From an uncultured Gammaproteobacteria bacterium (GTDB lineage Bacteria; Pseudomonadota; Gammaproteobacteria; Pseudomonadales; UBA5518), in the NCBI GenBank assembly GCA_903938575.1, contig CAJADV010000085.1, positions 9,491 through 73,490 of the forward strand: a DNA stretch of 64,000 nucleotides, in the 5' to 3' direction. The position numbers and the translations under genes were made by a program. The notes beneath the pieces are model-generated. The model was given only the letters and a program-made list of their open reading frames with translations, did not search any database and was not told the origin of the DNA. This document shows, piece by piece, positions 4,093 through 26,149 of the stretch; the stretch's first letter is position 1, and each line of letters opens with the position of its first letter.

Positions 4093-4818
4093 TCAGCGCA
4101 GGTGCTGTGGCTTGCCTGCAGGGAGTTCGGGTGCCTTGCGGGTGTTCGTGATGTGCTCCCTCGCGAGTGTCGCCGCACGCCCGGCGTCACGCTGCCCGAT
4201 AGCCTCTAGCAGGGCCGCGTGTTCTTCCACCGATGTCGCGCGACGCGAGTCTGCGGTGACGGTGTAGAAGCGCACCCGCTTACCAAGTGGTTCGAGCATG
4301 GAGACAAGCACCGAATTGCCGGTGGCCAGCGCCATGAGGCGGTGGAAATCCTGATTCGAGCGCGCCAGTGCCGCTCCGTTTCGGACGCGCATTTCCCCCT
4401 GCGAGCGGACCACTATATCGCGCAGTTCCTGCATCTGCGCGGCGGTTCTGCGCTCGGCCGCGAGGGCTGCTGCTGCAGGCTCGAGCACCAGTCGCGTCTC
4501 GAAAAGATCCTGCATTTCCTCCTCCGACTTCGGCCGCACGAAATATCCCTGCCGGGGGCGTGTGACCACCCAGCCGTGCGCCTCTAGGGCGCGCAGTGCC
4601 TCCCGCACAGGGACCCTGCTTATGCCGTAGTGCTCCGCGAATACGTCCGCGTTCAGTCGTTCGCCAGCGCGGAGTTTGCCGTCGAGGATGGCTTCCTCGA
4701 TTGAGTCGACGAGGAGTGCGGCGAGCGTGGCCTTCGGCCCTTTTTCGCCCGAACTGGCGGGCAAGGCACCCAGATTGCCGGGGTCGGCTGAACGTGTCCG
4801 CGGTCTGGCCATTTTCAA
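4093..4818 (-). CDS. GntR-family transcriptional regulator (FadR/FCD-type C-terminal domain)
   Basis: wHTH segment FAEHYGISRVPVREALRALEAHGWVVTRPRQGYFV followed by a helical ligand domain. The exact start codon is uncertain. Confidence 0.85.
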   Translation of the reverse strand: MKMARPRTRSADPGNLGALPASSGEKGPKATLAALLVDSIEEAILDGKLRAGERLNADVFAEHYGISRVPVREALRALEAHGWVVTRPRQGYFVRPKSEEEMQDLFETRLVLEPAAAALAAERRTAAQMQELRDIVVRSQGEMRVRNGAALARSNQDFHRLMALATGNSVLVSMLEPLGKRVRFYTVTADSRRATSVEEHAALLEAIGQRDAGRAATLAREHITNTRKAPELPAGKPQHLR

Positions 4819-4982
4819 TACCGTGCCGTGTAGCGGGATTAGAGTATCCGTTTTCCCGAAGACTTTCCGGTGTGGTACCCGAACCGCTGCCCTGAGAGCT
4901 AAACTGTAACTGCGGATTGGGGCCGCGGTGCAATTGCCGCCAGGGTGCTTCGATGGCCTAATGGTTTTTCGGAATCGAGGAT

Positions 4983-5756
4983 ATGTATATGGGCAGGGTA
5001 GACGGCAAAGTTGTGATCATCACCGGGGCACTGGGCGGTATCGGCCGCGCGGATGCCGCGCTGTTTGCCCGCGAGGGCGCGCGCCTCGTGCTCACCGACA
5101 TCACTGAGAAGGGGGCCGATGATCTGCTGGCGTCGCTGGGCACTGAGGCGATTTTCCTGCGCCACGATGTGAGCAGCGAGGACGACTGGGCTCGCGTGGT
5201 CGCCACCGCCGAGGAGCGCTTCGGGCGGCTGGATGCATTGGTGAACAACGCCGGCATGATGGTGCTGGGCAACCTTGGTGACACCTCGTTCGCCGACTGG
5301 CGTCGCGTGATGTCGGTGAACCTCGACGGCGTATTCCTCGGTTGCCGAGCGGCATTGCCCGCGCTGGAGCGCGCCGGTGGCGGGGCCATCGTCAATATCT
5401 CGTCCATTGCGGCCATGCACGGCATGCCCTACGTCACGGCCTATTGTGCCAGCAAGGGTGGTGTGCGCTCGCTTACCAAGGCGGTGGCGGTGCAGTGCCG
5501 TCAGGCCAAGAACAACGTGCGCTGCAACTCCGTGCACCCCGATGGCGTGAAGACACCCATGGTGTTCAAGGTTGCCACCGGGCAGGATTCCGCCACGCGG
5601 GAAGAGATCGAGTCCATCACCGGCTCCAGCGATCGTTTCTGCGAGCCCGAGGACATTGCCGCGGTGGTGCTGTTCCTGGTCTCGGACGAGTCTCGCTACG
5701 TGAACGGCGCGGAGATCATGGTCGATAACGCGGCTCTGGTGACGGGGCCTGCCTGA
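4983..5756 (+). CDS. Short-chain dehydrogenase/reductase (SDR), hydroxysteroid-dehydrogenase-like
   Basis: TGALGGIG cofactor motif, NNAG, and a Ser...YCASK catalytic motif. The start could be ATG 4989 instead of 4983, which has better SD spacing. Confidence 0.9.
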   Translation: MYMGRVDGKVVIITGALGGIGRADAALFAREGARLVLTDITEKGADDLLASLGTEAIFLRHDVSSEDDWARVVATAEERFGRLDALVNNAGMMVLGNLGDTSFADWRRVMSVNLDGVFLGCRAALPALERAGGGAIVNISSIAAMHGMPYVTAYCASKGGVRSLTKAVAVQCRQAKNNVRCNSVHPDGVKTPMVFKVATGQDSATREEIESITGSSDRFCEPEDIAAVVLFLVSDESRYVNGAEIMVDNAALVTGPA

Positions 5757-5854
5757 TCGCCGCAGTACGGCGCAGCGACGATCCCTCGCCCCTCACACAC
5801 GAGCGCGATGGCGCCAGTCGCCTCGCGTCTTCCTCCGGTTCGATGCAGCGCCGA

Positions 5855-10357
<4,503 letters not shown>

Positions 10358-10386
10358 AGGATGACTCCGTGCAGCGGTGCTTGCCG

Positions 10387-11328
10387 CTAGCGACTCGGGA
10401 AAACCATTTCAAATCGTTGGTCCGCCGCGTTCAGGCCAAGGCCCAGGTGGTTCGCGGTGCGGATGTTGATCGCCGTGTGCAACTGCTCTAGCGGCGCCAG
10501 CGTCGTATCACCCGCAGGCGGGTGCGCGGCGAGGCGCCCCAGCGCTTTGCCCATCGCCGTATTGTCGGGAAAGAGCGCGAACAGCGCGCCCTTGGGGACA
10601 TGCGCGATATTGCTGGAGAAAACCACGATGTTCCGGTCCCATGCGGTGCGCAGGATCATCTGCAGCACCGAGCTCTCGGCAAGGAAGGGCGAGCCTTGCG
10701 GCAGCCACAGCGCCTCGACGGCCGGATCCATCTGTGCAAGGCGTTCGCGATAGGCGTTGGCGCCATCGCGCAGCGTGTCGCGGCGCAGCGTTTCGAGTGT
10801 GATGCCCTGCCTCTTCGCGGCGCTCTGGCCGAGTTCCACCAGCCAGTCGTTGTTGTCCGCGCCGTGCACCAGGGTCACGCGGGTCACCTTGGGCGCGAGT
10901 TCATGCAGTGTGGCAAACAGGCGCGCCGGGGCGGGGACCATCGAGATGCCGCGCACGCCCTCGGGTAACTCGCCCGGGCGCGCCATTACGGCGCCGATCA
11001 CCCGGTCGAGGGGTGTTTTCAGCTCGCGCATCACGTCGAGGCCGTATTTGCCAAGCAGCAGCACGCGCTGTGCGTCGCGTCCGGCGAGGCGTGCGGAGAT
11101 ATCGTTTGCGTTTTCGGTGGTCGCCACCTCCTGCACGTCGGCGCGCTCGCCGAGTTCCTCCGTTATGCCTGCAACGATGGCGAGGAACGCCGCACGGTAG
11201 GGCTCGCGCACGTTGGGGTAGATCACGGCAACCGGCCCGGTCTCGGCGGCAGGCGCGGCCGCCTGCACGGCTCTGAACGGTATCAGGCACAGGGCGGATG
11301 CAAGGGCGATGATAGCCAGTCGTGTCAT
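10387..11328 (-). CDS. Periplasmic substrate-binding-like protein (COG2984 / ABC_sub_bind-like) with no cognate permease or ATPase
   Basis: Start chosen at the internal ATG 11328 giving a signal peptide, MTRLAIIALASALCLIPFRAVQAAAP. Two-lobe binding-protein pattern ending ...INIRTANHLGLGL. ATGA overlap with the upstream gene; 29 nt before the sensor gene. Confidence 0.6.
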   Translation of the reverse strand: MTRLAIIALASALCLIPFRAVQAAAPAAETGPVAVIYPNVREPYRAAFLAIVAGITEELGERADVQEVATTENANDISARLAGRDAQRVLLLGKYGLDVMRELKTPLDRVIGAVMARPGELPEGVRGISMVPAPARLFATLHELAPKVTRVTLVHGADNNDWLVELGQSAAKRQGITLETLRRDTLRDGANAYRERLAQMDPAVEALWLPQGSPFLAESSVLQMILRTAWDRNIVVFSSNIAHVPKGALFALFPDNTAMGKALGRLAAHPPAGDTTLAPLEQLHTAINIRTANHLGLGLNAADQRFEMVFPSR

Positions 11329-12149
11329 GGCGGCCACGCATCGGGCAGCGGGCGTGCCGGCGCTCCGCGGTATTGCACATCGGCGCAGGACAGAGGAAGG
11401 AAACCTCCGGCGGGCGCGGAGGCCGCTTCCGCGTAACAGGCGTGTACACCCGCATTCACGGCGAGCGCATACAGGCATTCGCCATCCGCGATCTGCATGT
11501 CGCCGTGATCGAGCAGGAATGCGGCCAGGTAGCCCAGCATGTTCAGGCCCGCATCGCCGTGAGGCGCCAGAAGCGCATCGATCTCCAGCGCGAGCCCGAG
11601 GTAGGTGCCATTCACGAAGCCGAGTTCCGCGGCCAGTCCCGCAAGTGCCGCGACGCGGTCATCGCCCTGGGCGATGGGGCGCGTAAAGCCCGGTGCGCGC
11701 ACGCGCCCGCCGGGGCGTGTCCGGCTTGCAATGAAGGCCTCGAGAGTCGCGCCGCCAAGACGCGCGGTTTGCGCCGAGACCAGGAAGTCGTGCGCAGGGC
11801 GCGTGCTGCCAGGGCCGTAGAGCGTGGATTCGCTGGCCATCACGCCTGCGCTGATGCCCACGGTGGGCGTGAGGCGTACGCTGCCAGCAAGGGCGCCGAT
11901 CTGATTGCACCAGATGCGCGGGTCGGGAAATGCGAGGCAGAGGAAACTCGCCTCTATCCAGCGTGCGAGGCGTGGATCGGGCAGCTTGCCGGTCACCTCG
12001 AGGTACAGCACCTCGAAGAAACTGCGTCGGCCCACCAGGTCCTCGAGCAGCGAGTGTCCGTGCACGCTGATGCCGCCGCCGATGCGCCAGCCACCTTTGC
12101 GGGTGCGGATGCGGCTGCGGCGCTGGTCCCAGAACGTGGTGTCGTTCAT
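11325..12149 (-). CDS. Citrate-synthase-fold / citryl-CoA-lyase-like protein B (catalytic residues apparently degenerate)
   Basis: Start at internal ATG 12149 (MNDTTFWDQ...). SFFEVLYLEVTGKLPDPRLARWIEASF matches the conserved CS/CCL helix. APGFTRPIAQGDDRV sits where the family has PGFGHxVYxxxDPR. ATGA overlaps at both ends. Confidence 0.6.
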   Translation of the reverse strand: MNDTTFWDQRRSRIRTRKGGWRIGGGISVHGHSLLEDLVGRRSFFEVLYLEVTGKLPDPRLARWIEASFLCLAFPDPRIWCNQIGALAGSVRLTPTVGISAGVMASESTLYGPGSTRPAHDFLVSAQTARLGGATLEAFIASRTRPGGRVRAPGFTRPIAQGDDRVAALAGLAAELGFVNGTYLGLALEIDALLAPHGDAGLNMLGYLAAFLLDHGDMQIADGECLYALAVNAGVHACYAEAASAPAGGFLPLSCADVQYRGAPARPLPDAWPP

Positions 12150-12964
12150 GCGCTGCCGCCCGTATCCGCGTCCACGTATTCGTAGCGTTCCTCGGGTACG
12201 AAGGGCATGGCGGTGATGCCGCGTCCGGCCGTCTCGAGCGCGTGCGCGAGTAACCCCGGCAAGCCCGCCAGTTGGTAGAGAAGGCCCGCTGCGCGCGGCG
12301 TGAAGCCCAACTCCAGCGCGGTCGCGGCGGCGAGGCCCGGTTGCAGCCAGCCGCAGCCAGTGCCTGCCAGCGCAGCCGCAAAGCGCGCGGACCAGGCGAG
12401 TGGGCCTTCGGGTCTTGCCAGCTCGCACAGCGGGGCCGCAAGGCTCAGACAGAAACTGTCGATGTTGCCGTGGAGCGTGCCGAAGCCTGGCGCGACGCGG
12501 CGGTCTCCCGGTGTCAGCGGCGGCTCCAGAGCCACGAGCTGCGCGGCTAGATCGATGGGCTCTGCACTGCAGCGTGCGGCGATGAACGCTGCGGCATGCT
12601 CGACCTCTGCGCTGCCCAGATGCTCGCCGCCCAGCAGCGCAATGCCGATCGCCGGCAGCGCCGCGTTGCGTGTTCCCGAGGCGGCGGCATTCATCACCGC
12701 GCGCGAAGCCGCGTGGCGCGGACCCGGATTGCAGAAACTCACCAGGAATCGTGACATCAGCCGGCGTTGCGCGGCGTCCGGCAGTTCGCCGCGAAGCAGC
12801 AGGAAGATGGTGTCGTCGAAAGACAGCCGGCGTGCCATCTCATCGAGCGCGTAGCCGTGACAGCGCGCCCCCGTGGCAAGCCAGGCGTTGTCCGGATCGG
12901 GCAGCTCCTCCCACACGCGCGTGCGCACGTGATCGGGAAAAGCGGTGTCTCGGCTTTGCTCCAT
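12146..12964 (-). CDS. Citrate-synthase-fold / citryl-CoA-lyase-like protein A
   Basis: LSFDDTIFLLLRGELPDAAQRRLMSRFLVSFCNPGPRHAASRAVMNAAASGTRNAALPAIGIALLGGEHLGSAE resembles the citryl-CoA lyase small-domain core. APGFGTLHGNIDSF sits in place of PGFGHRVY. Confidence 0.6.
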   Translation of the reverse strand: MEQSRDTAFPDHVRTRVWEELPDPDNAWLATGARCHGYALDEMARRLSFDDTIFLLLRGELPDAAQRRLMSRFLVSFCNPGPRHAASRAVMNAAASGTRNAALPAIGIALLGGEHLGSAEVEHAAAFIAARCSAEPIDLAAQLVALEPPLTPGDRRVAPGFGTLHGNIDSFCLSLAAPLCELARPEGPLAWSARFAAALAGTGCGWLQPGLAAATALELGFTPRAAGLLYQLAGLPGLLAHALETAGRGITAMPFVPEERYEYVDADTGGSA

Positions 12965-12978
12965 CGCCCGTCAGCCGC

Positions 12979-15153
12979 TCAGAACCGCAGTCGCGCCGTG
13001 ACGTGGAAACTGCGCTCTTCCAGCGGGAAATCATCGGGCATCAAGGAGCCCGCAGGCACCGCCTCGGTGGGGCTCGGCTCCCTCGCGTTCTCGTCGAGGA
13101 GATTCTTCACGCGCAAGGCGAGGTCGAGATGTCCGGCGATGCGACTGCGCTCGATGTTGAGGTTCACCAGCGTGTAGTCATCGAGCGGGTCGCGGGGATC
13201 GAGCGGCTCGCGGTTGCGGTCGGCCACCCAGCGCAGTTCGCCCGTGGCCGACCAGTTCTCCGCCAGACGCCAGTGCGCCCGCAGATACGCGGTGCGTTCC
13301 GGTGCCCGGGCGCCGTTCTCGCCCAAGCTCTTGTCTTCGGCATTCTGCACAGCCACGTTGGCCACTACGCGTAGCGATTCCAGTGGCTTCCACTCGGCCT
13401 CGAGCTCGAGGCCACGCCCTTTCTGCCTGCCCACGTTCTGTGCCACCTGTGCGCCGGAGCCGGTGGCGACGAAGTCGATCAGGTCGTCGATGTCGTACTG
13501 GAAAAGGTTCAATCCCAGGCGCCACTCGAAGCCCGGTCTCCAGTCGAGGGCTAGCTCGTAGGTGTTGGTGGTTTCAGGGTCAAGGTCCGGATTTCCGAGC
13601 GCCACGGGGTTGTTGATGATGAACAGTTCCGCGAAGGAGGGGGCGCGGAAGGCGCGGCCGTAGAGCAGTTTGGCGGTGAGATCGGTGTCGACGTCCCAGA
13701 CCAGCGCGAGCCGGGGGTTTACCGTGCTGCCGAAATCCGAGTAATCGTCGAAGCGCACACCGGTGGTCAGGTTCCAGTCGTTGGCGATTTGCCACTGGTC
13801 CTGCAGCGAGGCGTAGGCCACGTCGCGATCCTGGTTCTCGATGAAGGCGTTGGCTGTCCCGCTGACATCGGTGAGCGTGCCGTCCACCGTGCAGATGCCC
13901 GGGCCGCAGTTGCGGCTCGCGAGATCAAGCACGCCGGGGCCGAAATTCTTCGTCTCTTTCCCGGACTCCTTCTGCGAGCTGATTCCCGTCGCCACGCGCA
14001 GGCTGTGGTTTTCGAGCCCATCCCAGGTGAGTACGGCCTCGGCGCGGGCGTGCTCCTCGTAGAACTCGGGATTGCCACGGTAGCCATCGGTGAAACGGAA
14101 CAGACGGAACGGGGCGGCGATCCTGATGTTGCCGTCGTCGCCGATCGGCAGCACGGTGCCCGCAGGAAACAGCGTCTGGCGGGTCTTGATGTTGATATCC
14201 ATGTACGAGGCGCGCAGTTCGAGCGTCGTGTCGGGCGCGAGTGATTTCGTGCTCCAGCCGATATCGAAGAGATAGTTGTCGCCTTCCGCGTTACCCGAAG
14301 GATCCAGCGCCAGCGCGAGTCCGGGGCCGACGCCAACGTCGTCCTGACGCCAGTTCCATGCTCGCAGCTGGAAGTCGTGGTACTTGAGGTCCAGTCGCAC
14401 GTCCATCGATTCGGGGTTGCGTGTGGCGAGTGCTCCGGGCGCGAGCGAGGCGGGCTGCAGACCCAAGGGCGCCAGCACCGTGTCGAATACCGATTGCGCA
14501 TCGCTGCTGATGCGCCGCGAGCTGTCGCCATCGGTGCCAGACGCCTGGGCGGAGAAGCTCACATCCACCTCGCCCCAGCGCGTGCCGTGCAGGAGCCACC
14601 CTTCAGTGGTATCGAAGGAGCCGCCGCGCACGCCCGCTTCGGTGCCGCCGATCTGTGCCGAGCTCTTGGTGATCACGTTGATTACGCCCGCGAGCGCGTC
14701 GGCGCCGTAGATTGCGGAACCCGGGCCACGGATCACCTCCACGCGTGCGATGTCGCGCACGGGGAATGAGCGTCCGCCGCGATCGCCAAAATGCAGCTGC
14801 GTGATCGGCACGCCGTTCACCAGCATCAGTACCTGGGGGTTCTTGTCGGTGTAAATGCCGCGTACCGAGACCACGGGCGAGAGATAGGTGCTTGAGAGCG
14901 AGACATGCACGCCGGGTACGGTTTCGAGGATCTCCTCCAGCGTGGTAGCACCCAGCGCGGCGATGTCCTCGGCGGTTATGACAGAGGCCACGGCAGGCGC
15001 CTTGGCGATCAGCTGCTTTTGTCCCGTTGCGATGCTGAGGAACTCCTCATCTCCGAAGGACGCTGCAAGGTCCTCCTCGGACGACGCCGCGAGACAGTGC
15101 GAAGAGGCGGCCACGGCAGCCGCCAACAGTGCAGGGATGAATCGCTTGTTCAT
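12979..15153 (-). CDS. TonB-dependent outer-membrane receptor
   Basis: Start chosen at ATG 15153 (MNKRFIPALLAAAVAASSHCLAA signal peptide). Plug-domain motifs (VEVIRGPGSAIYGADALAGVINVITK), a long beta-barrel and a terminal ...RLRF. Confidence 0.9.
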   Translation of the reverse strand: MNKRFIPALLAAAVAASSHCLAASSEEDLAASFGDEEFLSIATGQKQLIAKAPAVASVITAEDIAALGATTLEEILETVPGVHVSLSSTYLSPVVSVRGIYTDKNPQVLMLVNGVPITQLHFGDRGGRSFPVRDIARVEVIRGPGSAIYGADALAGVINVITKSSAQIGGTEAGVRGGSFDTTEGWLLHGTRWGEVDVSFSAQASGTDGDSSRRISSDAQSVFDTVLAPLGLQPASLAPGALATRNPESMDVRLDLKYHDFQLRAWNWRQDDVGVGPGLALALDPSGNAEGDNYLFDIGWSTKSLAPDTTLELRASYMDINIKTRQTLFPAGTVLPIGDDGNIRIAAPFRLFRFTDGYRGNPEFYEEHARAEAVLTWDGLENHSLRVATGISSQKESGKETKNFGPGVLDLASRNCGPGICTVDGTLTDVSGTANAFIENQDRDVAYASLQDQWQIANDWNLTTGVRFDDYSDFGSTVNPRLALVWDVDTDLTAKLLYGRAFRAPSFAELFIINNPVALGNPDLDPETTNTYELALDWRPGFEWRLGLNLFQYDIDDLIDFVATGSGAQVAQNVGRQKGRGLELEAEWKPLESLRVVANVAVQNAEDKSLGENGARAPERTAYLRAHWRLAENWSATGELRWVADRNREPLDPRDPLDDYTLVNLNIERSRIAGHLDLALRVKNLLDENAREPSPTEAVPAGSLMPDDFPLEERSFHVTARLRF

Positions 15154-15160
15154 GCGGTAC

Positions 15161-17008
15161 TCACATGGCCTGCAGTGCCTGGATCCGCCGCCCGATCGGA
15201 GGTACCTCGCTGGCATCGATGCGGATATCCAGAAGGGTGGGGCTCTTCTGCATGCAGATTGCGGGGATGTTGAGGTTCAACAGGTCCTGTGGTGTCTGGA
15301 TAAGGTAGCCGCGGATTCCCATGGCCTCGGCCATGCGGCGGAAATCGACCTGCGGCAGCTCCGCGCCGATCCGCTCCCCACCGCCCAGGATCTGGCCGTG
15401 CGCGACCATGCCGAGCCTGGCGTCGTTCAGCACGATGAACACCACCGGCAGGCCGAGCTGTTGGGCAACGGTGATTTCCTGGCCACTCATCAACATGCTG
15501 CCGTCGCCGGTGATGCACACCACCGGGTCGCCCGGGCGCGCGAGCGCCGTGCCCACGGCATTGCCTATCGCCCAGCCCATGGGGGCAAACTCGAAGCCTG
15601 CCTGGAAGAGCCCGCCGCAGTTACTGCGGCGGTCGCGCTCGCCGCGCTCGCCGCGTTCGCGGTGGCGGCGATCGAGCAGGCGGCGGTCGAAGGGGTGCAG
15701 GTAGTGTGTGCTCCACGCAAAGCTGTTGCCGGCATCGGCGAGGTAGCGGGTGCTGGGCGGGAAGAGCTGCGTCAGCTTGGTCATCAGCCACTGCGGCTTG
15801 ACGGGGCTGGAGGCATCGAGGCACTTGGCGAAGTCCGTCACCTCGAAGGGCAGCAGTGATTGTCCGCTGCTCACGTGTTCATCAGTGTCCTGGCGCTCGA
15901 TGCTGCCAAGGTGGCGCCCGGCCTTGCCGAGCTCGATGATCACGCTCTCGAAGATGGTGTCGATGGATCCGCGCACGTGCAGGCGCGCCATCGGCGAGCG
16001 GGTGAGGTTGCCTTCGTTGGAGTCCACGTGGACCAGCTGGCTGTTCAGCAGGCCCTCGCTGTCCCAGTTATTGCTGCTCCACTCGCTCAACAGGTTGCCG
16101 ATGGTGATCATCAGATCGACCTCGGGGTCCCGCAGGGTGCGCTCGGCGCTGACATGGCCAGCAAAGGAGACCACACCGTCGTAGGTGGGGTGGAAGGGGC
16201 TGATCAGTCCCTTGCCGTCAGGCGTGGTGACGACGCGGGCACCGACCATCATGGCGGCACGCAGGATGAGCCCTGCCGCATCCTGGCAGCCGCCGCCCAG
16301 CACGAACACCGGTTTCTTGGCCGCAAGCAGCAGCTCGACCATGGTGGCCAGCGCGCTTTCGTCCTTCCACGCCGGGCGCGCGAGCAGTGAAGTGAGGTTG
16401 TAGGCAGGCCCCGAGGTCGACACGGCAGAGCGCAGCACGTCTAGCGGTACGCTGACATGCGCCGGCCCGCTTGCGTTGAAGGCGGTCATGATGGCGGAGG
16501 TCAGCTTGTGCTCGAGCTGATCGATGTGGCTCACCAGGGTGTTGTAGTGGGTGCAGTGCTGGAACATGCCCACGGTGTTCACCGCGGTGTCGCTGGATTC
16601 CTGGAAGGCCTTGCGACCGAAGTGGCTGAGCGAAGTCTGCGGGGTGATGACCAGCATGGGGATCTGGTTCTCGTAGGCTGAGGCCACGCCGGTGATCAGA
16701 TTGGTGGCTCCGGGGCCGGTGGTGCTGCAGCACACCCCCAGGCGACCGGTGTTGCGGGCATAGCCCTCGGCCATGAAGGCGGCGCCCGTCTCGTGGCGAG
16801 CCACCACGGCCCGCACCGAGCCGCGGCGCTGGCTGCGGGCACGCGCGTTGTACAGGGGCTCGATGGCCCCGCCCGGGATGCCAAAGACGTACTCCACCCC
16901 CAGCTGTTCCAGGTAGCCGAGAATCAGGTCCCCGCCCTCGTAAATCCGGGGCGAGGCTGAAGGCTCCGCGCTGACAGCGGGGTAAAGCGTGCGCACTTGA
17001 GCAACCAC
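15161..17008 (-). CDS. Thiamine-diphosphate-dependent enzyme of the acetolactate-synthase / 2-hydroxyacyl-CoA-lyase superfamily, with an Arg/Glu-rich insertion
   Basis: N-terminal LGVEYVFGIPGG...HETGAAFMAEGYAR...GPGATNL and C-terminal ITGDGSMLM...LNDARLGMV TPP motifs. Extra segment DRRLLDRRHRERGERGERDRRSNCGG lies just before the TPP-binding loop. The stop is 7 nt from the TonB-receptor ATG. Confidence 0.85.
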   Translation of the reverse strand: MVAQVRTLYPAVSAEPSASPRIYEGGDLILGYLEQLGVEYVFGIPGGAIEPLYNARARSQRRGSVRAVVARHETGAAFMAEGYARNTGRLGVCCSTTGPGATNLITGVASAYENQIPMLVITPQTSLSHFGRKAFQESSDTAVNTVGMFQHCTHYNTLVSHIDQLEHKLTSAIMTAFNASGPAHVSVPLDVLRSAVSTSGPAYNLTSLLARPAWKDESALATMVELLLAAKKPVFVLGGGCQDAAGLILRAAMMVGARVVTTPDGKGLISPFHPTYDGVVSFAGHVSAERTLRDPEVDLMITIGNLLSEWSSNNWDSEGLLNSQLVHVDSNEGNLTRSPMARLHVRGSIDTIFESVIIELGKAGRHLGSIERQDTDEHVSSGQSLLPFEVTDFAKCLDASSPVKPQWLMTKLTQLFPPSTRYLADAGNSFAWSTHYLHPFDRRLLDRRHRERGERGERDRRSNCGGLFQAGFEFAPMGWAIGNAVGTALARPGDPVVCITGDGSMLMSGQEITVAQQLGLPVVFIVLNDARLGMVAHGQILGGGERIGAELPQVDFRRMAEAMGIRGYLIQTPQDLLNLNIPAICMQKSPTLLDIRIDASEVPPIGRRIQALQAM

Positions 17009-17195
17009 GGAGGGCTCCTTCCATTAGAGACCGCTTCAGTATAGAAGGCTAAACCATTGCTGCTTGTGAATTTTCCGGCTTTGAGAGCGGCTGCGAAAAG
17101 ATGGTCTAGGAGCCCGCGCTGCCGAGGGGGGTGTGCCCGGCTCCCGCCCGCTGGCATCATGGGCGCAGACCCCATCCAGCGCCCGGAGAGACCTC

Positions 17196-17894
17196 ATGGA
17201 AAAACTGATCTACCCCCTCTGGAGTCACCCCGGCGAGACCTCCTCGAGGCTTCGCGAGCGCCTGCTCGGGGTGTCCGCGGAACTGCTGGGCGCCGGTGCG
17301 CATCAGGTTCGGCTCAGCGTGGTTGACGAGGACGTGGCGGCCGCAGCACCGCTCAGGCAGACCAACACCAAGCCCACCTGCGACGCCCTGTTGAGTCTTT
17401 GGGTGGATACGGCGGTTTGGCACCAGCGCTACGAGGCGCTTATCGCGCCCCATGTCGCCCGCTATAACGGCTATCTCGTGTGCGAATCCGAGCCCATCCG
17501 CCATGCCCAGCGCGCCCCGGGCGACGGCAGCCGGGTGGAGGGAATGTGCCAGGTGGTGTTTCTCCAGCGCCCGCCGCGTCTGCCTGCCGAGGAATGGATC
17601 CGGATCTGGCAGGGGAGCCACACGCAGGTGGCCATAGACACCCAGGCGACCTTCGGTTACCGCCAGAACGTGGTCATCCGGGCCCTGACCTACGCTGCGC
17701 CGCGCTACGACGCGATCGTCGAGGAGAACTTCCCCGCGGCGGCCATGAGCAGCCAGAATGCCTTCTATGACGCCGTGGGAGACGACGCCAAGCGCGAGGC
17801 CAACCTCAAGGCCATGATCGACAGCTGCGTGCGCTTCATCGATTTCGACTGCATCGACGTGATCCCCACCAGCGAGTACAACCTGCACCGCTGA
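17196..17894 (+). CDS. Hypothetical protein, possibly a tandem EthD-like (dimeric alpha/beta barrel) domain protein
   Basis: Start at ATG 17196, preceded by GGAGAG. The MEKLIYPLW... opening and a second half MCQVVFLQRPPRLPAEEWIRIW...YRQNVV resemble EthD-type domains. The family call is tentative. Confidence 0.5.
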   Translation: MEKLIYPLWSHPGETSSRLRERLLGVSAELLGAGAHQVRLSVVDEDVAAAAPLRQTNTKPTCDALLSLWVDTAVWHQRYEALIAPHVARYNGYLVCESEPIRHAQRAPGDGSRVEGMCQVVFLQRPPRLPAEEWIRIWQGSHTQVAIDTQATFGYRQNVVIRALTYAAPRYDAIVEENFPAAAMSSQNAFYDAVGDDAKREANLKAMIDSCVRFIDFDCIDVIPTSEYNLHR

Positions 17895-17936: not shown

Positions 17937-18866
17937 ATGCCGCTGCACCCGCACGTGATCCCGATTCTTGACGCATTGAACGCCAATATGGCGGCCATCC
18001 CGCAGGTGCCGGTTGAGCAGATCGGCCTGCTCCGGCAGGGACCGATGGCGCCGCCGCCGGAGCAGCCGACACCAGTGGCACGGGTGGAAGACCGTGCCAT
18101 TCCCGGGCCAGCCGGCGATCTCATCGTGCGGATCTATTGGCCGGAGGCCTCGGGGCCCCGCCCGCTGGTGGTGTTCTTCCACGGTGGCGGCTTCGTGCTC
18201 TGCAGCCTGGATACGCACGATGAACTCGGCCGCGGACTCTGCCGTGAAGCCGAAGCGGTTGTGGTGTCGGTGGACTACCGGCTGGCACCCGAGAACCCTT
18301 ACCCGGCAGCGGCCGATGACTGCTACGCGGCGCTCGTCTGGGCTGTGGCCAACGCCGAGAGCCTGGGAGCGGATCCGGCCAGAGTGGCGGTGGCCGGCGA
18401 CAGCGCCGGCGGCAATCTGGCAGCGGTTACGGCGCTGCGGGCCCGGGATCTGGGTGGTCCGGCGCTGCGGCATCAATGTCTTATTTACCCGGTCACCGAT
18501 TCCCGTTGCGACACGCCGTCATTCGCGGAAAACGCTGACGGCTACTTCCTCTCGGCCGATGGCATGCGCTGGTTCTGGTCGCACTATCTGCAGGATGGGG
18601 GGCGGGGTGATGAGGCCTACGCCTCGCCGCTGCGGGCGCCGGATCTTTCGGGTTTGCCGCCGACGCTCGTGATCACGGCCGAGTACGACCCGCTGCGCGA
18701 TGAGGGTGAGCGCTACGCCGCAGCGCTTGCCGCTGCTGGTGTTGCCACCGAGCTGCGCCGCTATGACGGGATGATCCACGGTTTCGTCAGTCTGGCCGCG
18801 CTCCTCGAGGATGGCGGCCATGCGCTCGCGCTGGCCTCGCGGCATCTGCGCGAGGCACTTGCCTGA
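17937..18866 (+). CDS. Alpha/beta hydrolase fold-3 esterase/lipase (hormone-sensitive-lipase family)
   Basis: HGGGF oxyanion motif and GDSAGGNLA nucleophile elbow, with a C-terminal DPLRDEG...HGF arrangement. Confidence 0.9.
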   Translation: MPLHPHVIPILDALNANMAAIPQVPVEQIGLLRQGPMAPPPEQPTPVARVEDRAIPGPAGDLIVRIYWPEASGPRPLVVFFHGGGFVLCSLDTHDELGRGLCREAEAVVVSVDYRLAPENPYPAAADDCYAALVWAVANAESLGADPARVAVAGDSAGGNLAAVTALRARDLGGPALRHQCLIYPVTDSRCDTPSFAENADGYFLSADGMRWFWSHYLQDGGRGDEAYASPLRAPDLSGLPPTLVITAEYDPLRDEGERYAAALAAAGVATELRRYDGMIHGFVSLAALLEDGGHALALASRHLREALA

Positions 18867-21286: not shown

Positions 21287-22042
21287 GTGGAGTTCTGCTC
21301 GCTCGGAAGTGGCAGCGCGGGTAACGCGCTGCTGGTGCGCTCGGGCAACGCCTGCCTGATGCTCGACTGCGGATTCGGGCCGCGTGAGCTCGAGCGCCGT
21401 ATCGCCAGCCGGGCCATGGACCCCAGAGACATCGACGCTATCGTGGTCACCCACGAGCACTCCGATCACGTAGGCGGTGTGGCGGCCGTGGCGCGGCGCT
21501 TTGGTATAGCCGTGTACGCCACAGCAGGCACCGCCAAGGCCTCGCGCCTCAACCAGCAGCCCTTCGGCGTGCTCGAGTCCGAGCGCACGCTGCGCATAGG
21601 CGACATCGACGTGCTGCCCGTAACGGTTCCCCACGATGCCCGCGAGCCCTGCCAGTTCCTGTTCGCACATGCCGGCAAGACGCTGGGCGTACTGACCGAT
21701 CTGGGGCATGTCTCGAAGCTGGTGCGCGATCGCTTTGCCGCCTGCGACGCATTGGTGCTCGAGTGCAATCATGACGAGCAGATGCTGGAGCAGGGGCCTT
21801 ACCCCTACCCCCTGAAGCGCCGCGTCGGGGGCAGTCTGGGGCATCTGAGCAATGCGCAGGCCGCGGGTCTGTTGGCCGGCGTGGAGCAGGGGGCGCTGCA
21901 GCATCTTGTCGCGGCCCACCTGAGCGAACAGAATAACGCTCCCCGCAAAGCCCGTGAGGCGCTGGCGGCGGTGCTCGGACACGAGCGCGGCCTGCAAGTT
22001 GCCGATCAGTCAGCGGGCTTCGGGTGGCTCGAAATTCTCTGA
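21287..22042 (+). CDS. MBL-fold metallo-hydrolase
   Basis: GTG start. THEHSDHVGG metal-binding motif. Sits in the common dapA-bamC-MBL-purC arrangement. Confidence 0.85.
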   Translation: MEFCSLGSGSAGNALLVRSGNACLMLDCGFGPRELERRIASRAMDPRDIDAIVVTHEHSDHVGGVAAVARRFGIAVYATAGTAKASRLNQQPFGVLESERTLRIGDIDVLPVTVPHDAREPCQFLFAHAGKTLGVLTDLGHVSKLVRDRFAACDALVLECNHDEQMLEQGPYPYPLKRRVGGSLGHLSNAQAAGLLAGVEQGALQHLVAAHLSEQNNAPRKAREALAAVLGHERGLQVADQSAGFGWLEIL

Positions 22043-22078
22043 GCTGCGTATACCTTTTTTTGCATCACGGAAAGGACC

Positions 22079-22792
22079 ATGGAAAAGCGCGATCTGTTGG
22101 TGAAAGGCAAGGCAAAGTCGATGTACGCCACGGATGACCCGGGCTACGTGATCATGCACTTCCGCGATGACACCTCGGCCTTCGACGGCAAGAAAGTCGA
22201 GCAGCTCGAGCGCAAGGGTCGCGTCAACAATATCTTCAACGCCTTCATCATGGAGACGCTCGCCGCCGCGGGCATCCCGACCCACTTCGTGAAACGCATC
22301 GACGACCGCGATTCGCTGGTGCGGCGCATGAGCATGATTCCGGTGGAATGCGTGGTGCGGAACATCGCCGCCGGCAGCATCTGCCGCCGCCTTGGTGTGA
22401 AGGAAGGCATCGATCTCGAGCCGCCGACCTTCGAGCTGTTTTACAAGGACGACGCCCTCGGCGACCCGATGATCAACGAATACCACATCGCCGCTTTCAA
22501 GTGGGCGCGGCTGGAGGATGTGAACACAGCGCGGGAGCTCACTTTCAAGGTGAACGATGTCCTGAAAAAGCTGTTTCTGGACCACGGGATGCTGTTGGTA
22601 GACTACAAACTTGAGTTCGGGACCTGTGATGGCCAAGTGCTGCTCGGTGACGAGTTCACACCAGACGGTTGCCGACTCTGGGACGTCGAAACCCGCGAAA
22701 AGCTCGACAAGGACCGCTTCCGCCAGAGCCTCGGCAACGTGGTGGAGTCCTACGAAGTGGTGGGTCGCAGACTGGGCCTCAGCTTCGATTGA
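22079..22792 (+). CDS. purC: Phosphoribosylaminoimidazole-succinocarboxamide (SAICAR) synthase
   Basis: 237 aa. The opening [30 protein letters not shown] and LVDYKLEFG are typical of PurC. Confidence 0.95.
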
Positions 22793-22841
22793 TGTGCGTT
22801 CCGGTTGTCGCGCTGACCGCTCGCGACAACCTGGCTTTTCC

Positions 22842-22931
22842 GGAGAGGTGCGAGAGCGGTTGAATCGACTTGACTCGAAATCAAGCGTAGGTGAAAGCCT
22901 ACCGTGGGTTCGAATCCCACCCTCTCCACCA
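22842..22931 (+). tRNA. tRNA-Ser (anticodon CGA), class II with long variable arm, encoded CCA
   Basis: Hand-folded cloverleaf. Acceptor GGAGAGG/CCTCTCC. Anticodon stem CTTGA/TCAAG with loop CTCGAAA. Variable arm GTAGG-TGAAAG-CCTAC. T arm GTGGG-TTCGAAT-CCCAC. Confidence 0.9.
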
Positions 22932-22940
22932 TATAAAAAA

Positions 22941-22967
22941 GGGCCCCCAGCGGGGCCCTTTTTTTAT
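22941..22967 (+). terminator. Rho-independent terminator after tRNA-Ser
   Basis: Perfect GGGCCCC/GGGGCCC stem with a 4-nt loop, followed by a run of T residues. Confidence 0.8.
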
Positions 22968-23039
22968 TTGGTGCAGTGGGCGGCGTGGACGAAACCACCG
23001 GTTCGACAAATCGGCAGGAGTGTAACGCTCGCCTTGGAC

Positions 23040-23291
23040 TCAACGCTGCTTGTACTGCGTCGGGGAGTAGCCGCGACTGATTTCAGGATTTCGCAGTTTC
23101 AGATGTTTTGATGCACGCCCGCTGACGCGCTCACGCCACAATTCAAAGCTGCCACGCTTCAGGGAACTGCGCATCAGAAGGATCACCTGCGACTCATTCA
23201 AGCCAAATTGCTGTTCAATCGCTTCAAACGGCGTACGGTCTTCCCACGCCATTTCTATGATTCTGGAGCTTTCTTGTTCGGTTAACGACAT
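23040..23291 (-). CDS. DUF2805 / TIGR03643-family small protein
   Basis: The 83-aa sequence IIEMAWEDRTPFEAIEQQFGLNESQVILLMRSSLKRGSFELWRERV matches my recollection of that family. It lies in an AT-richer patch. Confidence 0.7.
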   Translation of the reverse strand: MSLTEQESSRIIEMAWEDRTPFEAIEQQFGLNESQVILLMRSSLKRGSFELWRERVSGRASKHLKLRNPEISRGYSPTQYKQR

Positions 23292-23418
23292 TCTGGAGCT
23301 CCTCTAATTACCTCTAGTATTGATCCCGGATGTCCTCGGGCTTCGCCTTGAGAGCGCTCTCCATGCCCACCTCGCCCTGATCTCCGAGCTTTTTACATCC
23401 AGGATCAGGATGAAAAAC

Positions 23419-24102
23419 TCAGTTGCTGCCGTTTCCTGTCGAATGCCCACACAGGCTCACAAACTCAGGTACAGCCCCTGGGGAGCCAGGCAGATCATTC
23501 CAATAGGGTGAGGCAGGCGTAATCGGAGTCATGTAGGTGGGGCCGTGCGTGATGAACGCGGCGCCGTCCTGGACGATGGTGCTGGCCAGCACCATGGTTA
23601 ACCACTTGCCATTTACGCGTGACATGTAGGAAACCGGCCACGGCTGTGCCGCGACACCGGTAGCAGGGGTTACCACCGTTAGCGATATCTCACCCCGTGG
23701 TGCGATGGTCCCGAACATGTCCTGGCAGCTAATGGGCAAATCCAGGCCGGCGGGCTGAGTCGTGAACTGTGTGACCATCCATCCGGAAAAGACGCCCCGA
23801 TGGGATTGTTCGATGTAATAGATGGTCTGCTGATCGACAGGCTGAACAGTGGATCCTGCATGGAACTGTGCAGGCAGTGCGTCGGTGGGAACGTACCAAT
23901 ACGTTCCGGTCAACAGCTTGTCCCAACGGTACGCATCCTGCGCCTTGCCGATGCCGGGCGTAGTGATGGCACCAGTCTTTCCTGATTGAGGCGCTGGCTC
24001 TCCGAAGCTTCCGCTAGCGCCCATACCCAGCGTAATGGCGATGGCTGTTCTCACGGCGCACATGAAGCCGCTGCCAATTGATGATCTTGAATAACGTTCC
24101 AT
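23419..24102 (-). CDS. Hypothetical secreted protein, no recognisable family
   Basis: Start at ATG 24102 with an AGGAG SD. N-terminal hydrophobic signal-like segment (FMCAVRTAIAITLGMGASG). Codon usage is AT-richer than the flanking core genes. Confidence 0.55.
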   Translation of the reverse strand: MERYSRSSIGSGFMCAVRTAIAITLGMGASGSFGEPAPQSGKTGAITTPGIGKAQDAYRWDKLLTGTYWYVPTDALPAQFHAGSTVQPVDQQTIYYIEQSHRGVFSGWMVTQFTTQPAGLDLPISCQDMFGTIAPRGEISLTVVTPATGVAAQPWPVSYMSRVNGKWLTMVLASTIVQDGAAFITHGPTYMTPITPASPYWNDLPGSPGAVPEFVSLCGHSTGNGSN

Positions 24103-24544
24103 GAGGGTCTCCTGATGCCTGCTCACGATAGGCTGAAATCACTGAGCTATGCCATGAAAAATGGCAGACCTGCCCGCAGTAAGAGTGTATAAGTTATACG
24201 GGTTGTAAGTGAGGGATCTACCTCACCTTTTACACCACCCTAGTTGCTTCTTGGACCTCGTCGCGATGGCATCGGGGTCAGCGCAGCACCACCTCCTGCC
24301 GAGCCCTATGCAGCCTGATCTCACGAGGCTGCATGTCGGTGGAGATTTGCAACGGAGCCTACTGCCCGGCTGGCGGATGGCGCCAAACGGAAACAGTTCT
24401 GCAGCAGTCCAATCAGGCCGAGCGGACATACGTGTTTCCGCGGGCATTAAAATCAAACCAAGTGAAGGAATTTTATGAAAAAAATCGGACTCCGAATTTA
24501 CGAAGCCTATCAGTACATTTTTGACTCCAGTAAAAACCCGCTAA

Positions 24545-25777
24545 GGAAACACTGATTTATTCAGCGGATCCGCGCGCTTCAGCATGGCGGTAGTCGATAA
24601 TAGAGCGACACGATACATGACGTGGTCCTCGATGAAGCAGATCAGCTTTTCTGACGCGGAGTTCGCTGCAAAGCGTAAGGTCACGCGGCGCGAGCGGGTG
24701 TTGTCGGAGCTCGATGCGGCGGTTCCGTGGTCTGCAGTCGCTGCGGTGATTGAACCGCACTATCCGAAGGGTATCGGCGCCGGTCGCCCGCCGATCGGCC
24801 TGGAGCGGATGCTGCGGATGTATGTCGCCCAGCAGGTTCTTGGCCTCTCTGACGAAGGCATCGAGGATGCGATTTACGACAGCCAGTCGGTTCGTGGTTT
24901 CGTCGGCATTGATCTCGCTGTCGAATCGGCTCCGGATGCGACGACGCTGTTGAAGTTCCGTCGTCTGCTCGAGGGCGCAAAGCTGACCAAGGAGCTTTTC
25001 AAGGCGATCAATAGGCGTCTCGCCGACAAGGGCTTGCTCCTGCGCAATGGCACGATCGTGGATGCCACGCTGATCGCGGCAGCGCCCTCCACCAAGAACA
25101 AAGACAAACAACGCGACCCGGAGATGCACCAGTCCAAGAAGGGCAACCAGTGGTTCTTCGGGATGAAGGCGCATATCGGCGTCGATGCCGAGTCGGGGCT
25201 GGTGCACAGCGTGGTCGGCACGGCCGGCAACGTGGCAGATGTCACGCAGGTTGACCAGCTGCTGCACGGTGAAGAGCAGTGCGTGTTCGCGGATGCCGGA
25301 TACACCGGTGCCGAGAAGCGTGAAGCGGTTGCGGACAAGGACCTTGGTTGGTACATCGCGCGCAAGCGAGGTGTGATCACGAAGGCGAAGCAGGGCGGCG
25401 CGTATCGCAAAGCACTGGAAGCTGTCGAGCGTGCGAAGGCCTCTGCCCGCGCGCTCGTCGAACATCCGTTCCATGTGATCAAGAACCTGTTCCGCCATCG
25501 CAAGGTGCGGTATCGCGGGATCGAGAAGAACACCGCCCAGCTCTACACGCTGTTTGGTCTGGCGAATCTGGTGCTCTCGCGTAGAAAGCTGTCGCCGCAT
25601 TGTGGGGTTACTGCGCCTGCAGCGTGAGGAATCGGGCGAAACAGCCCGGAAAACGGGCTGAAAACGAGGCGCGAAGTCATGGAATTGGCATACCGGTGCG
25701 GTAATCGCACGATTCCGACGACTTGGTCTCTGATCTTGCCTCGCGCTCGCGGAAATCATGAATAGTTCAGCGTCTCC
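24545..25777 (+). mobile_element. IS5-family insertion sequence (1233 bp) with imperfect terminal inverted repeats
   Basis: Left end GGAAACACTGATTTATTCA vs reverse complement of the right end GGAGACGCTGAACTATTCA (15/19 by hand; 23/33 when extended). Flanked by CTAA (24541-24544) and CTAG (25778-25781), resembling the IS5 YTAR 4-bp target. Confidence 0.8.
24632..25627 (+). CDS. IS5-family DDE transposase
   Basis: MKQISFSDAEFAAKRKVTRRERVL..., DATLIAAAPSTKN, FGMKAHIGVD, ADAGYTG and VEHPFHVIKNLF...RYRGIEKN are hallmark IS5-group motifs. An upstream ATG at 24584 is an alternative start. Confidence 0.9.
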   Translation: MKQISFSDAEFAAKRKVTRRERVLSELDAAVPWSAVAAVIEPHYPKGIGAGRPPIGLERMLRMYVAQQVLGLSDEGIEDAIYDSQSVRGFVGIDLAVESAPDATTLLKFRRLLEGAKLTKELFKAINRRLADKGLLLRNGTIVDATLIAAAPSTKNKDKQRDPEMHQSKKGNQWFFGMKAHIGVDAESGLVHSVVGTAGNVADVTQVDQLLHGEEQCVFADAGYTGAEKREAVADKDLGWYIARKRGVITKAKQGGAYRKALEAVERAKASARALVEHPFHVIKNLFRHRKVRYRGIEKNTAQLYTLFGLANLVLSRRKLSPHCGVTAPAA

Positions 25778-25781
25778 CTAG

Positions 25782-25925
25782 GGGATGATCATTGCGACAT
25801 GCAATCGCCTCATCCACGGGTATCTGGGCATCGACAACGACACGCTTTGGAGCATCATCCGAGAGGATATGCCCGAATTGCTGTCGCGACTGCAGACGCT
25901 CCGGCACTCTCGCGAACAACGCTAG
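25782..25925 (+). pseudogene. C-terminal relic of a HepT-like HEPN (DUF86) toxin gene
   Basis: Hand translation gives GMIIATCNRLIHGYLGIDNDTLWSIIREDMPELLSRLQTL...*, which matches the DUF86 C-terminus (RNxLxHxYxGID..xxW). The Arg of the Rx4H motif reads Cys. There is no start codon, and the N-terminal two-thirds and the MntA partner are absent. The relic begins 4 nt from the IS end. Confidence 0.55.
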
Positions 25926-26149
25926 TCGGGGACCGGTCGGTTCATCGTCGGTCACATCCGGCGCATGCCCTGAGCTGCGCGGCAACGCTTGCAAGCAGCG
26001 CGAACTTGCGCGAGGAGGCGATTTCGCCTGTTGTTGATTGACTACGATGGTGTGCATCGTGTGCTCTATTGTTCGGATAGAGAATGGTTAGAAGCAAGGT
26101 TCGAACGAGAGCGCGTTGCCAGAGAGGCTTGCGCACTAAGCAAGCGCGG

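Follow-up and report, generated by a model that had tools for sequence, protein, structure and literature searches.

Paired citryl-CoA-lyase-fold paralogues with apparently rebuilt active sites are genetically tied to a thiamine diphosphate enzyme

Introduction

Few enzyme scaffolds have been studied as closely as the citrate-synthase fold, whose His/His/Asp chemistry is found in textbooks. In pig citrate synthase numbering, the catalytic triad consists of His274, which stabilizes the acetyl-CoA enolate, His320 of the HGGA motif, which polarizes the oxaloacetate carbonyl, and Asp375 of the DPR motif, the general base; Arg401 of the G-R-x-(P)G helix binds oxaloacetate/citrate, and the His within the PGFGH motif lies outside the triad. 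Here we describe two adjacent genes, termed A and B, whose products belong with the citryl-CoA lyase (CCL) version of this fold. They are found in the window, by which we mean the whole analyzed stretch of 64,000 nucleotides of contig CAJADV010000085.1, from an uncultured gammaproteobacterium:

12146-12964, minus strand: protein A, 272 amino acids (aa), a CCL-fold paralogue with NPGPRH (residues 79-84) where the DHG motif is expected
11325-12149, minus strand: protein B, 274 aa, a CCL-fold paralogue with PDPRIWCNQ (75-83), YG (111-112) and RP...GDxR (157-165)

The closest described systems are the citryl-CoA lyase of PDB entry 6HXP and the CCL module of ATP-citrate lyase (ACL; 6HXN, 6QCL, 6HXL). 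A and B have in common with these a fold of ~260-270 residues, lacking, as the CCLs do, the extra ~115 residues of full citrate synthases, and they retain the GELP helix, the PGF/YG loop, the Asp of DPR and the PG..AH helix; B also keeps the C-terminal Y-x-G...R motif of CCLs. They differ at the active site, where the D-H-G of CCLs has become N-P-G in A and P-D-P in B, the Arg of GR-V-PG has become Ala/Ser in the A family and Asn in B, and the HGGA His is missing from B. They differ further in company: CCL is a homo-oligomer partnered with citryl-CoA synthetase in the reductive tricarboxylic acid cycle, whereas A and B are a hetero-pair of 25%-identical paralogues partnered with a thiamine diphosphate (ThDP) enzyme, in the context of a receptor and a sensor kinase. 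Citrate synthase and 2-methylcitrate synthase (PF00285) are of the same superfamily and can be aligned with A and B over the N-terminal GY..L....SF....LL..GELP segment and the (L)WGP/YGP and PGFG loops, but at 370-430 aa they are considerably longer than A and B (about 270 aa). Full-text searches of one literature library found no paper on the pair, nor on PF04392-kinase-receptor modules with these enzymes.

Gene layout and fold

An original prediction for this DNA, made from the sequence alone, described two adjacent paralogous proteins of about 270 aa with an ATGA overlap, both related to citrate synthase and citryl-CoA lyase, and suggested that they form a heteromeric pair with degenerate active sites. 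The layout was correctly described: the TGA stop of A and the ATG start of B share ATGA, as do the stop of B and the ATG of the binding-protein gene that follows (10387-11328), and every string quoted in that prediction (LSFDDTIFLLLRGELPDAAQRRL, SFFEVLYLEVTGKLPDPRLARW, APGFGTLHGNIDSF, APGFTRPIAQGDDRV and YGPGS) is present in the sequence. The paralogy also holds. BLASTP aligns A with B at 25% identity (E 2e-7), and profile-profile comparison of the two families gives a probability of 98.6% (E 9e-16, 221 columns); by these comparisons A and B are paralogues that diverged anciently.

No curated family model in Pfam or NCBIfam reached its cut-off with A or B. The citrate synthase model PF00285 scored 21.7 bits with A and 15.2 bits with B, below its gathering threshold of 27, and the NCBIfam citryl-CoA lyase models matched over the full length at 67.3 (cut-off 212) for A and 52.3 (cut-off 193) for B. 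The closest solved relative of both is the Hydrogenobacter thermophilus citryl-CoA lyase 6HXP, with E-values of 7.5e-11 (A) and 4.4e-6 (B) for the single sequences, and 5e-27 (A) and 4.6e-18 (B) for the family profiles. Single-chain AlphaFold models, made separately for A and B, had a mean predicted local distance difference test score (pLDDT) of 90.2 in each case; their top Foldseek match was again 6HXP, with template modeling (TM) scores of 0.68-0.72 for A and 0.76-0.81 for B, and the other best matches of both were the CCL modules of ATP-citrate lyases. The profile matches to 6HXP and these structural matches together establish the citrate-synthase/CCL fold for A and B, a relationship first seen by eye.

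Active-site residues

Catalytic positions were mapped by aligning the family profiles with those of 6HXP, of ATP-citrate lyase and of citrate synthases; the equivalent active-site residues in Escherichia coli citrate synthase are H264, H305, D362 and R387 (PMC13147460). The His274 equivalent is Pro80 in A, within N79-P80-G81-P82 (D-H-G in CCL, D-H-G-P in ACL). In B it is Pro75, within F74-P75-D76-P77, or under an alternative alignment falls inside a four-residue deletion; residues 66-95 of B contain no His. The Arg401 equivalent (the Arg of the CCL GRVPG) is likewise gone from both, replaced by Gly234 in A and Asn232 in B. The His320 equivalent survives in A as His115, within GGEHLGS. In B this position is Ser115, within YGPGS, whose YGP aligns with the WGP that precedes the catalytic His in citrate synthases. 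The Asp375 equivalent is kept in both proteins (Asp169 of A, Asp163 of B), as is the Gly-rich PGF/YG loop.

It had been proposed that both proteins lack the catalytic histidines, and this is right for the His274 equivalent of both and for the His320 equivalent of B, where YGPGS does stand in place of HGGA, but not for A, which retains His115. The claimed alteration of the PGFGH..DPR motif likewise needs qualification, in that the catalytic residue of this motif, the Asp of DPR, is intact in A and B. The profile alignment that had been recommended as a check thus finds an intact His/His/Asp set in neither protein: A has the His320 and Asp375 equivalents, and B the Asp375 equivalent only.

These residues bear on the interpretation that A and B are no more than sequence-diverged versions of an ordinary enzyme, be it citryl-CoA lyase, citrate synthase or malyl-CoA lyase. 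The names attached to the family speak for it, since source records call the A and B homologues 'citrate synthase' and the best NCBIfam matches are named 'citryl-CoA lyase'. However, the His274 and Arg401 equivalents are missing from both proteins, the scores fall far below every curated cut-off, and at loci L001-L008 the called genes lying within 10 kb had no reported domain of the citryl-CoA-synthetase (succinyl-CoA-synthetase-like) type.

The scoring method is able to recognize true members. We scanned 1.84 billion representative proteins with the A profile, finding 187 matches at E <= 1e-30 and 788 at E <= 1e-10. Among the best 150 matches, which we aligned, nearly all have N-P-G-P-R-[H/D]; the canonical DHG, H, GH..DPR, GR signature is confined to a single protein, P0329. 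NCBIfam models were run on eight proteins, the B-like product of locus L089 and seven representatives, and this canonical protein alone passes a CCL cut-off (260 vs 212 bits). Merely diverged ordinary enzymes are therefore essentially excluded. On the loss of the His274 and Arg401 equivalents and the missed cut-offs, we conclude from sequence that A and B are not citryl-CoA lyases or citrate synthases and that such labels are wrong; the original prediction had already questioned an ordinary citryl- or malyl-CoA lyase, and these results bear it out.

Conservation of the altered sites

To distinguish decay from replacement we counted residues in 136 distinct A sequences and 202 distinct B sequences, gathered from protein searches and 80 genome loci. 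In the A family, position 80 is Pro in 125 sequences, Leu in 10 and Gln in one, and is never His. The adjoining G81, P82 and R83 are identical in 136/136, H84 is found in 131 and D169 in 126. Position 115 is less fixed: His in 105 (77%), Tyr in 14, Gln in 6, and Arg, Phe or Trp in others. Position 234 is Ser, Ala or Cys across the family and Gly in the window. In the B family, where mean column identity is 51% and 25 columns are invariant, 202/202 sequences agree at P75, D76, R78, W80, C81, N82, Y111, R157, P158, D163, R165, D214 and G234; position 115 is Thr, Ser, Val, Ala or Pro in the family and His in none, and position 232 is Asn, Ser, Ala or His.

Near-invariant polar replacements thus include Arg83, His84 and Arg88 of A, and Asp76, Arg78, Asn82, Tyr111, Arg157 and Arg165 of B. 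The most constrained segments of both proteins are the former active-site motifs, where constraint has not been relaxed. Because the replacement residues are among the most conserved of each family, and because the Asp is kept in both, the alignments point to sites that were rebuilt and not lost by decay, that is, to functional sites. The description of the active sites as degenerate is not borne out by these counts, and among the options that had been offered (pseudoenzyme, ligand binding or altered chemistry) the conservation leans towards a functional site.

Three cysteines of B, C71, C81 and C238, are found in 199, 202 and 200 of the 202 sequences. We considered an Fe-S or metal site formed by them and found it unsupported; divergent B-like proteins carry Met, Asn or Tyr at C81.

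Operon context and the ThDP enzyme

The pair lies within a tightly packed operon of six genes, the other four of which are:

15161-17008, minus strand: acetolactate-synthase-like ThDP enzyme, 615 aa, first gene of the operon, with Pfam domains TPP_enzyme_N/M/C
12979-15153, minus strand: TonB-dependent outer-membrane receptor with plug and barrel (Pfam/NCBIfam); probable start MNKRF at 15153
10387-11328, minus strand: protein resembling periplasmic binding proteins, with a signal peptide and a weak PF04392 (ABC_sub_bind) match
5855-10357, minus strand: hybrid sensor kinase, 1500 aa, last gene of the operon

From the ThDP enzyme to the kinase the gaps are 7, 14, -4, -4 and 29 nucleotides (nt). 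This set recurs elsewhere at 40-60% protein identity with gene order shuffled. Co-occurrence was counted in 52 non-redundant loci in which B is flanked by 6 kb or more on each side. The counts were 52/52 for A, 51 for the ThDP enzyme, 50 for the receptor, 47 for a kinase and 46 for the binding protein. The association spans Gammaproteobacteria to Desulfobulbaceae and Nitrospirota, and all-against-all clustering of open reading frames (ORFs) found no other widely conserved partner beyond the set. A and B are genetically locked to the ThDP enzyme, their near-obligate partner. This context, comprising the ThDP enzyme, TonB receptor, binding protein and a kinase ending in GGDEF-EAL domains, was missing from the original prediction.

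The ThDP enzyme has all three Pfam domains, N, M and C (E 7e-39, 3e-20 and 2e-27), and by eye the catalytic HE and GDGS...ND motifs, and on these features looks intact. Its best NCBIfam model is TIGR00118 (acetolactate synthase), at 279.5 bits against a cut-off of 538, followed by ScyA-related models; 25/25 of the listed models were below cut-off. Its best PDB matches are BbmA and CsmA, for which a literature search found no paper, and then acetolactate synthases, glyoxylate carboligase and pyruvate oxidase. It therefore shares the N/M/C ThDP domains of acetolactate synthase, ScyA-type carboligases and BbmA/CsmA. Between its middle and C-terminal domains, at ~15600-15690 (residues ~440-470), it carries an Arg/Glu-rich low-complexity insertion, DRRLLDRRHRERGERGERDRR, which breaks all family alignments; this segment is different in the orthologue P0302.

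Gene fusions were found within the trio of ThDP enzyme, A and B. Four independent proteins (P0207, P0288, P0295, P0333) are A-B fusions in gene order, with that of P0288 present on five contigs and its sequence in four sources. In P0302, the ThDP enzyme (E 9e-146 to that of the window) is fused to an A-like domain and followed by a B-like gene, in an 18.7-kb locus (L089) that has no called receptor or kinase gene; in three other loci (L092, L029, L038) ThDP, A and B are directly adjacent as separate genes. Based on these two arrangements, the minimal unit is the ThDP enzyme with A and B, while the receptor and sensor are a frequent add-on. In 65 of 73 loci the A and B genes either overlap or lie end to end, with overlaps of 4-29 nt in gene calls (start codons in other loci were chosen heuristically). 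From this, the constant co-occurrence and the four fusions, A and B most likely form a heteromer, which makes the pairing originally suggested a probable one.

A constant partner need not be a second enzyme. A and B might be a non-catalytic pseudoenzyme or regulatory subunit whose altered pocket binds a metabolite (organic acid, CoA or acyl-CoA) and which controls the ThDP enzyme or serves as its scaffold. The losses fit, with the His274 and Arg401 equivalents gone from both proteins and the His320 equivalent gone from B and variable in A. Acetolactate synthase, which the ThDP enzyme resembles, has small regulatory subunits, and no small-subunit domain of that type was reported among the called genes of the inspected loci; strict co-occurrence and the ThDP fusion suit a subunit as well as a second enzyme. 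The ThDP enzyme would then, like acetolactate synthase, have a dedicated accessory, here a CCL-fold heteromer and not an ACT-domain subunit. Yet the general-base Asp and the many invariant charged and polar active-site residues exceed the usual needs of ligand binding, and two distinct, equally constrained subunits would be an expensive regulator. We regard this regulatory role as doubtful, although it is the main rival to a catalytic one.

Receptor, sensor and possible functions

The remaining genes of the operon suggest a sensing pathway. The kinase has the domain order HAMP, HisKA, HATPase, REC, Hpt, REC, GGDEF, EAL behind a two-transmembrane periplasmic region (read by eye); in other loci GGDEF-EAL is either fused to the kinase or on a separate response regulator. 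No N-terminal signaling domain was detected in the TonB receptor. The PDB matches of the binding protein are weak and to proteins named just as uncharacterized transport-system components.

Returning to a catalytic role, we propose that the A-B heteromer would be the fixed partner of the ThDP enzyme at the operon head. Its pocket would be re-tooled for another reaction, in which a CoA thioester probably remains one substrate and the carbonyl partner is a different one. This reaction would use or supply a carbonyl compound made or consumed by the ThDP enzyme. A-B would act immediately before or after the ThDP enzyme, and the trio would perform two consecutive C-C bond steps. In most genomes the trio would be transcribed together with the receptor, the binding protein and a sensor kinase that feeds GGDEF-EAL domains. 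The small molecule of the trio, whether made or destroyed, would be the ligand that crosses the outer membrane via the receptor; it would then bind to the periplasmic protein and be sensed through the kinase, setting cyclic di-GMP (c-di-GMP) levels. That A-B handles a CoA thioester with a different carbonyl partner and also acts next to the ThDP enzyme is our preferred reading, held tentatively, at somewhat short of an even chance for the two together.

Several points weigh against this proposal, in which every functional step is inferred. First, the His320 equivalent varies in A, so that at least this canonical catalytic role is dispensable. Second, the conserved His84 of A, four residues past Pro80, may structurally replace His274. 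Third, the ThDP-A fusion of P0302 comes from a single contig and could be a read-through artefact, and so is supportive only. Fourth, the ORF clustering found no inner-membrane transporter or exporter conserved in the cluster, so that the cluster itself offers no evident route for a cytoplasmic product to the periplasmic sensor, or for an imported ligand to the enzymes.

ThDP carboligases make alpha-hydroxyketones, and citrate-synthase-type enzymes make alpha-hydroxy-carboxylate chelators. Cases of a synthase beside a sensor include the alpha-hydroxyketone system CqsA/CqsS, the binding-protein-dependent kinase LuxP-LuxQ, and ferric-citrate sensing through FecA. By analogy, the window cluster would follow the CqsAS/LuxPQ logic, with cytoplasmic small-molecule enzymes encoded beside a hybrid kinase and a periplasmic binding protein, and its TonB-dependent receptor admitting a ligand would recall FecA. 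The A/B module differs from these analogues: it has no sequence relationship to CqsA, LuxS or FecR, its receptor has no detected N-terminal signaling domain and its output is c-di-GMP. The trio might then be the synthase of an extracellular small molecule, such as an acyloin or alkyl-citrate-like signal or a metal chelator, with its own reception pathway; we consider this specific version unlikely.

The opposite direction is a catabolic one, in which a scarce nutrient would enter through the receptor, be sensed by the binding protein and kinase, and be broken down in the cytoplasm by the ThDP enzyme and A-B; a hydroxy-acyl-CoA might, for example, be cleaved and a 2-oxo acid then decarboxylated. 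The native activity of the CCL fold is that of a lyase, one operon holds receptor, sensor and enzymes, and accessory dehydrogenase and hydrolase genes are close by in some lineages, all of which would suit degradation. The cluster, however, lacks not only a conserved inner-membrane transporter but also a conserved CoA ligase or transferase; its output is c-di-GMP turnover and not a DNA-binding regulator; and the trio is also found without a called receptor or kinase gene nearby (L089). On balance we think a catabolic function improbable.

Whichever function holds, A and B make up a large, strictly constrained branch in which the fold and the Asp are kept, the rest of the site is replaced, and the proteins are hetero-paired and tied to a thiamine enzyme. 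Solving the A-B reaction would bring either a new chemistry or a new type of enzyme regulator to the citrate-synthase fold, and would correct the 'citrate synthase' labels on these genes. The conserved wiring of receptor, binding protein and kinase offers a testable entry into a ligand-sensing pathway controlling c-di-GMP, and cultured hosts exist (Neptuniibacter marinus, N. pectenicola, Colwellia maritima and Pontibacterium sinense). If the trio did prove to be a signal or chelator synthase, the cluster would represent a new class of circuit for sensing a self-produced ligand, with a novel catalytic form of the citrate-synthase fold at its core, and would be spread over aquatic and sediment Gammaproteobacteria, cable bacteria, other Desulfobulbaceae and Nitrospirota.

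Distribution of the family

A scan for the B motif in one genome per species (185,579 species) found 339 loci. In Gammaproteobacteria these occur in Neptuniibacter, Colwellia, Pontibacterium, Motiliproteus, Kangiella, Spongiibacteraceae, Sedimenticolaceae and Thiobacillus, and they are found as well in Desulfobulbaceae (including the cable bacteria Candidatus Electrothrix) and Nitrospirota. The closest relative of the window, at 95% identity over B, is a freshwater metagenome-assembled genome (MAG) labelled Klebsiella pneumoniae. The public records nearest to the window, L009 (CAMAXE010000002.1) and also L014, L017 and L018, bear the MAG labels Klebsiella pneumoniae, Klebsiella sp. or Enterobacteriaceae. 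The cluster is otherwise in freshwater Pseudomonadales-type MAGs, and these labels look wrong.

A few loci seemed to have B without A. Two of these (L028, L049) are short contigs. In a third, L055, an ISL3-family transposase and unrelated cohesin/TSP3-repeat ORFs (7328-7975) lie between the receptor and B, at the usual place of A, and this copy of the module looks disrupted. There remains L054, in which B comes straight after the receptor and A is absent.

Divergent A/B-like pairs recur with a domain of ~120 residues that has the motif (V/I)(V/C)CGSHGG...(F/L)(N/H)DAG.GK and is absent from the cluster of the window. It occurs as its own gene, N-terminally on an A-like protein or C-terminally on a B-like protein; instances are L090:1056-1430, L091:3078-3452, the C-terminal third of L093:7218-8531 and the N-terminal 140 aa of P0300. 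It had no significant Pfam or PDB match, the only hit being a weak one to DUF1805 (E about 1e-3).

Neighboring genes

Three plus-strand genes flank the operon of the window:

4983-5756, plus strand: short-chain dehydrogenase, convergent with the kinase gene; accessory neighbor
17133-17894, plus strand: EthD-domain protein, divergent from the operon
17937-18866, plus strand: Abhydrolase_3 esterase, divergent from the operon

The same arrangement of EthD, Abhydrolase_3 and short-chain dehydrogenase is found in L001, and these may be lineage-specific tailoring or accessory genes. Other accessories are also specific to lineages. A short-chain dehydrogenase is present in 22 loci, and in 22 loci the PF04392 protein has a PF12974 periplasmic protein of the 'phosphonate-binding' type ahead of it. 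In the deltaproteobacterial form of the cluster, a sulfotransferase gene separates B from the ThDP enzyme gene, as in L007 (11077-12198) and some 10 further Desulfobulbaceae loci.

Scanning 4800-17400 for promoters and terminators yielded nothing above shuffled expectation, and an Rfam search found no riboswitch, its lone match being a tRNA. A tRNA-Ser(CGA) gene lies at 22842-22931; the G+C content then drops from ~65% to 57-58% (about 22000-26000), and the low-G+C stretch adjoining the tRNA gene may be an integrated element.

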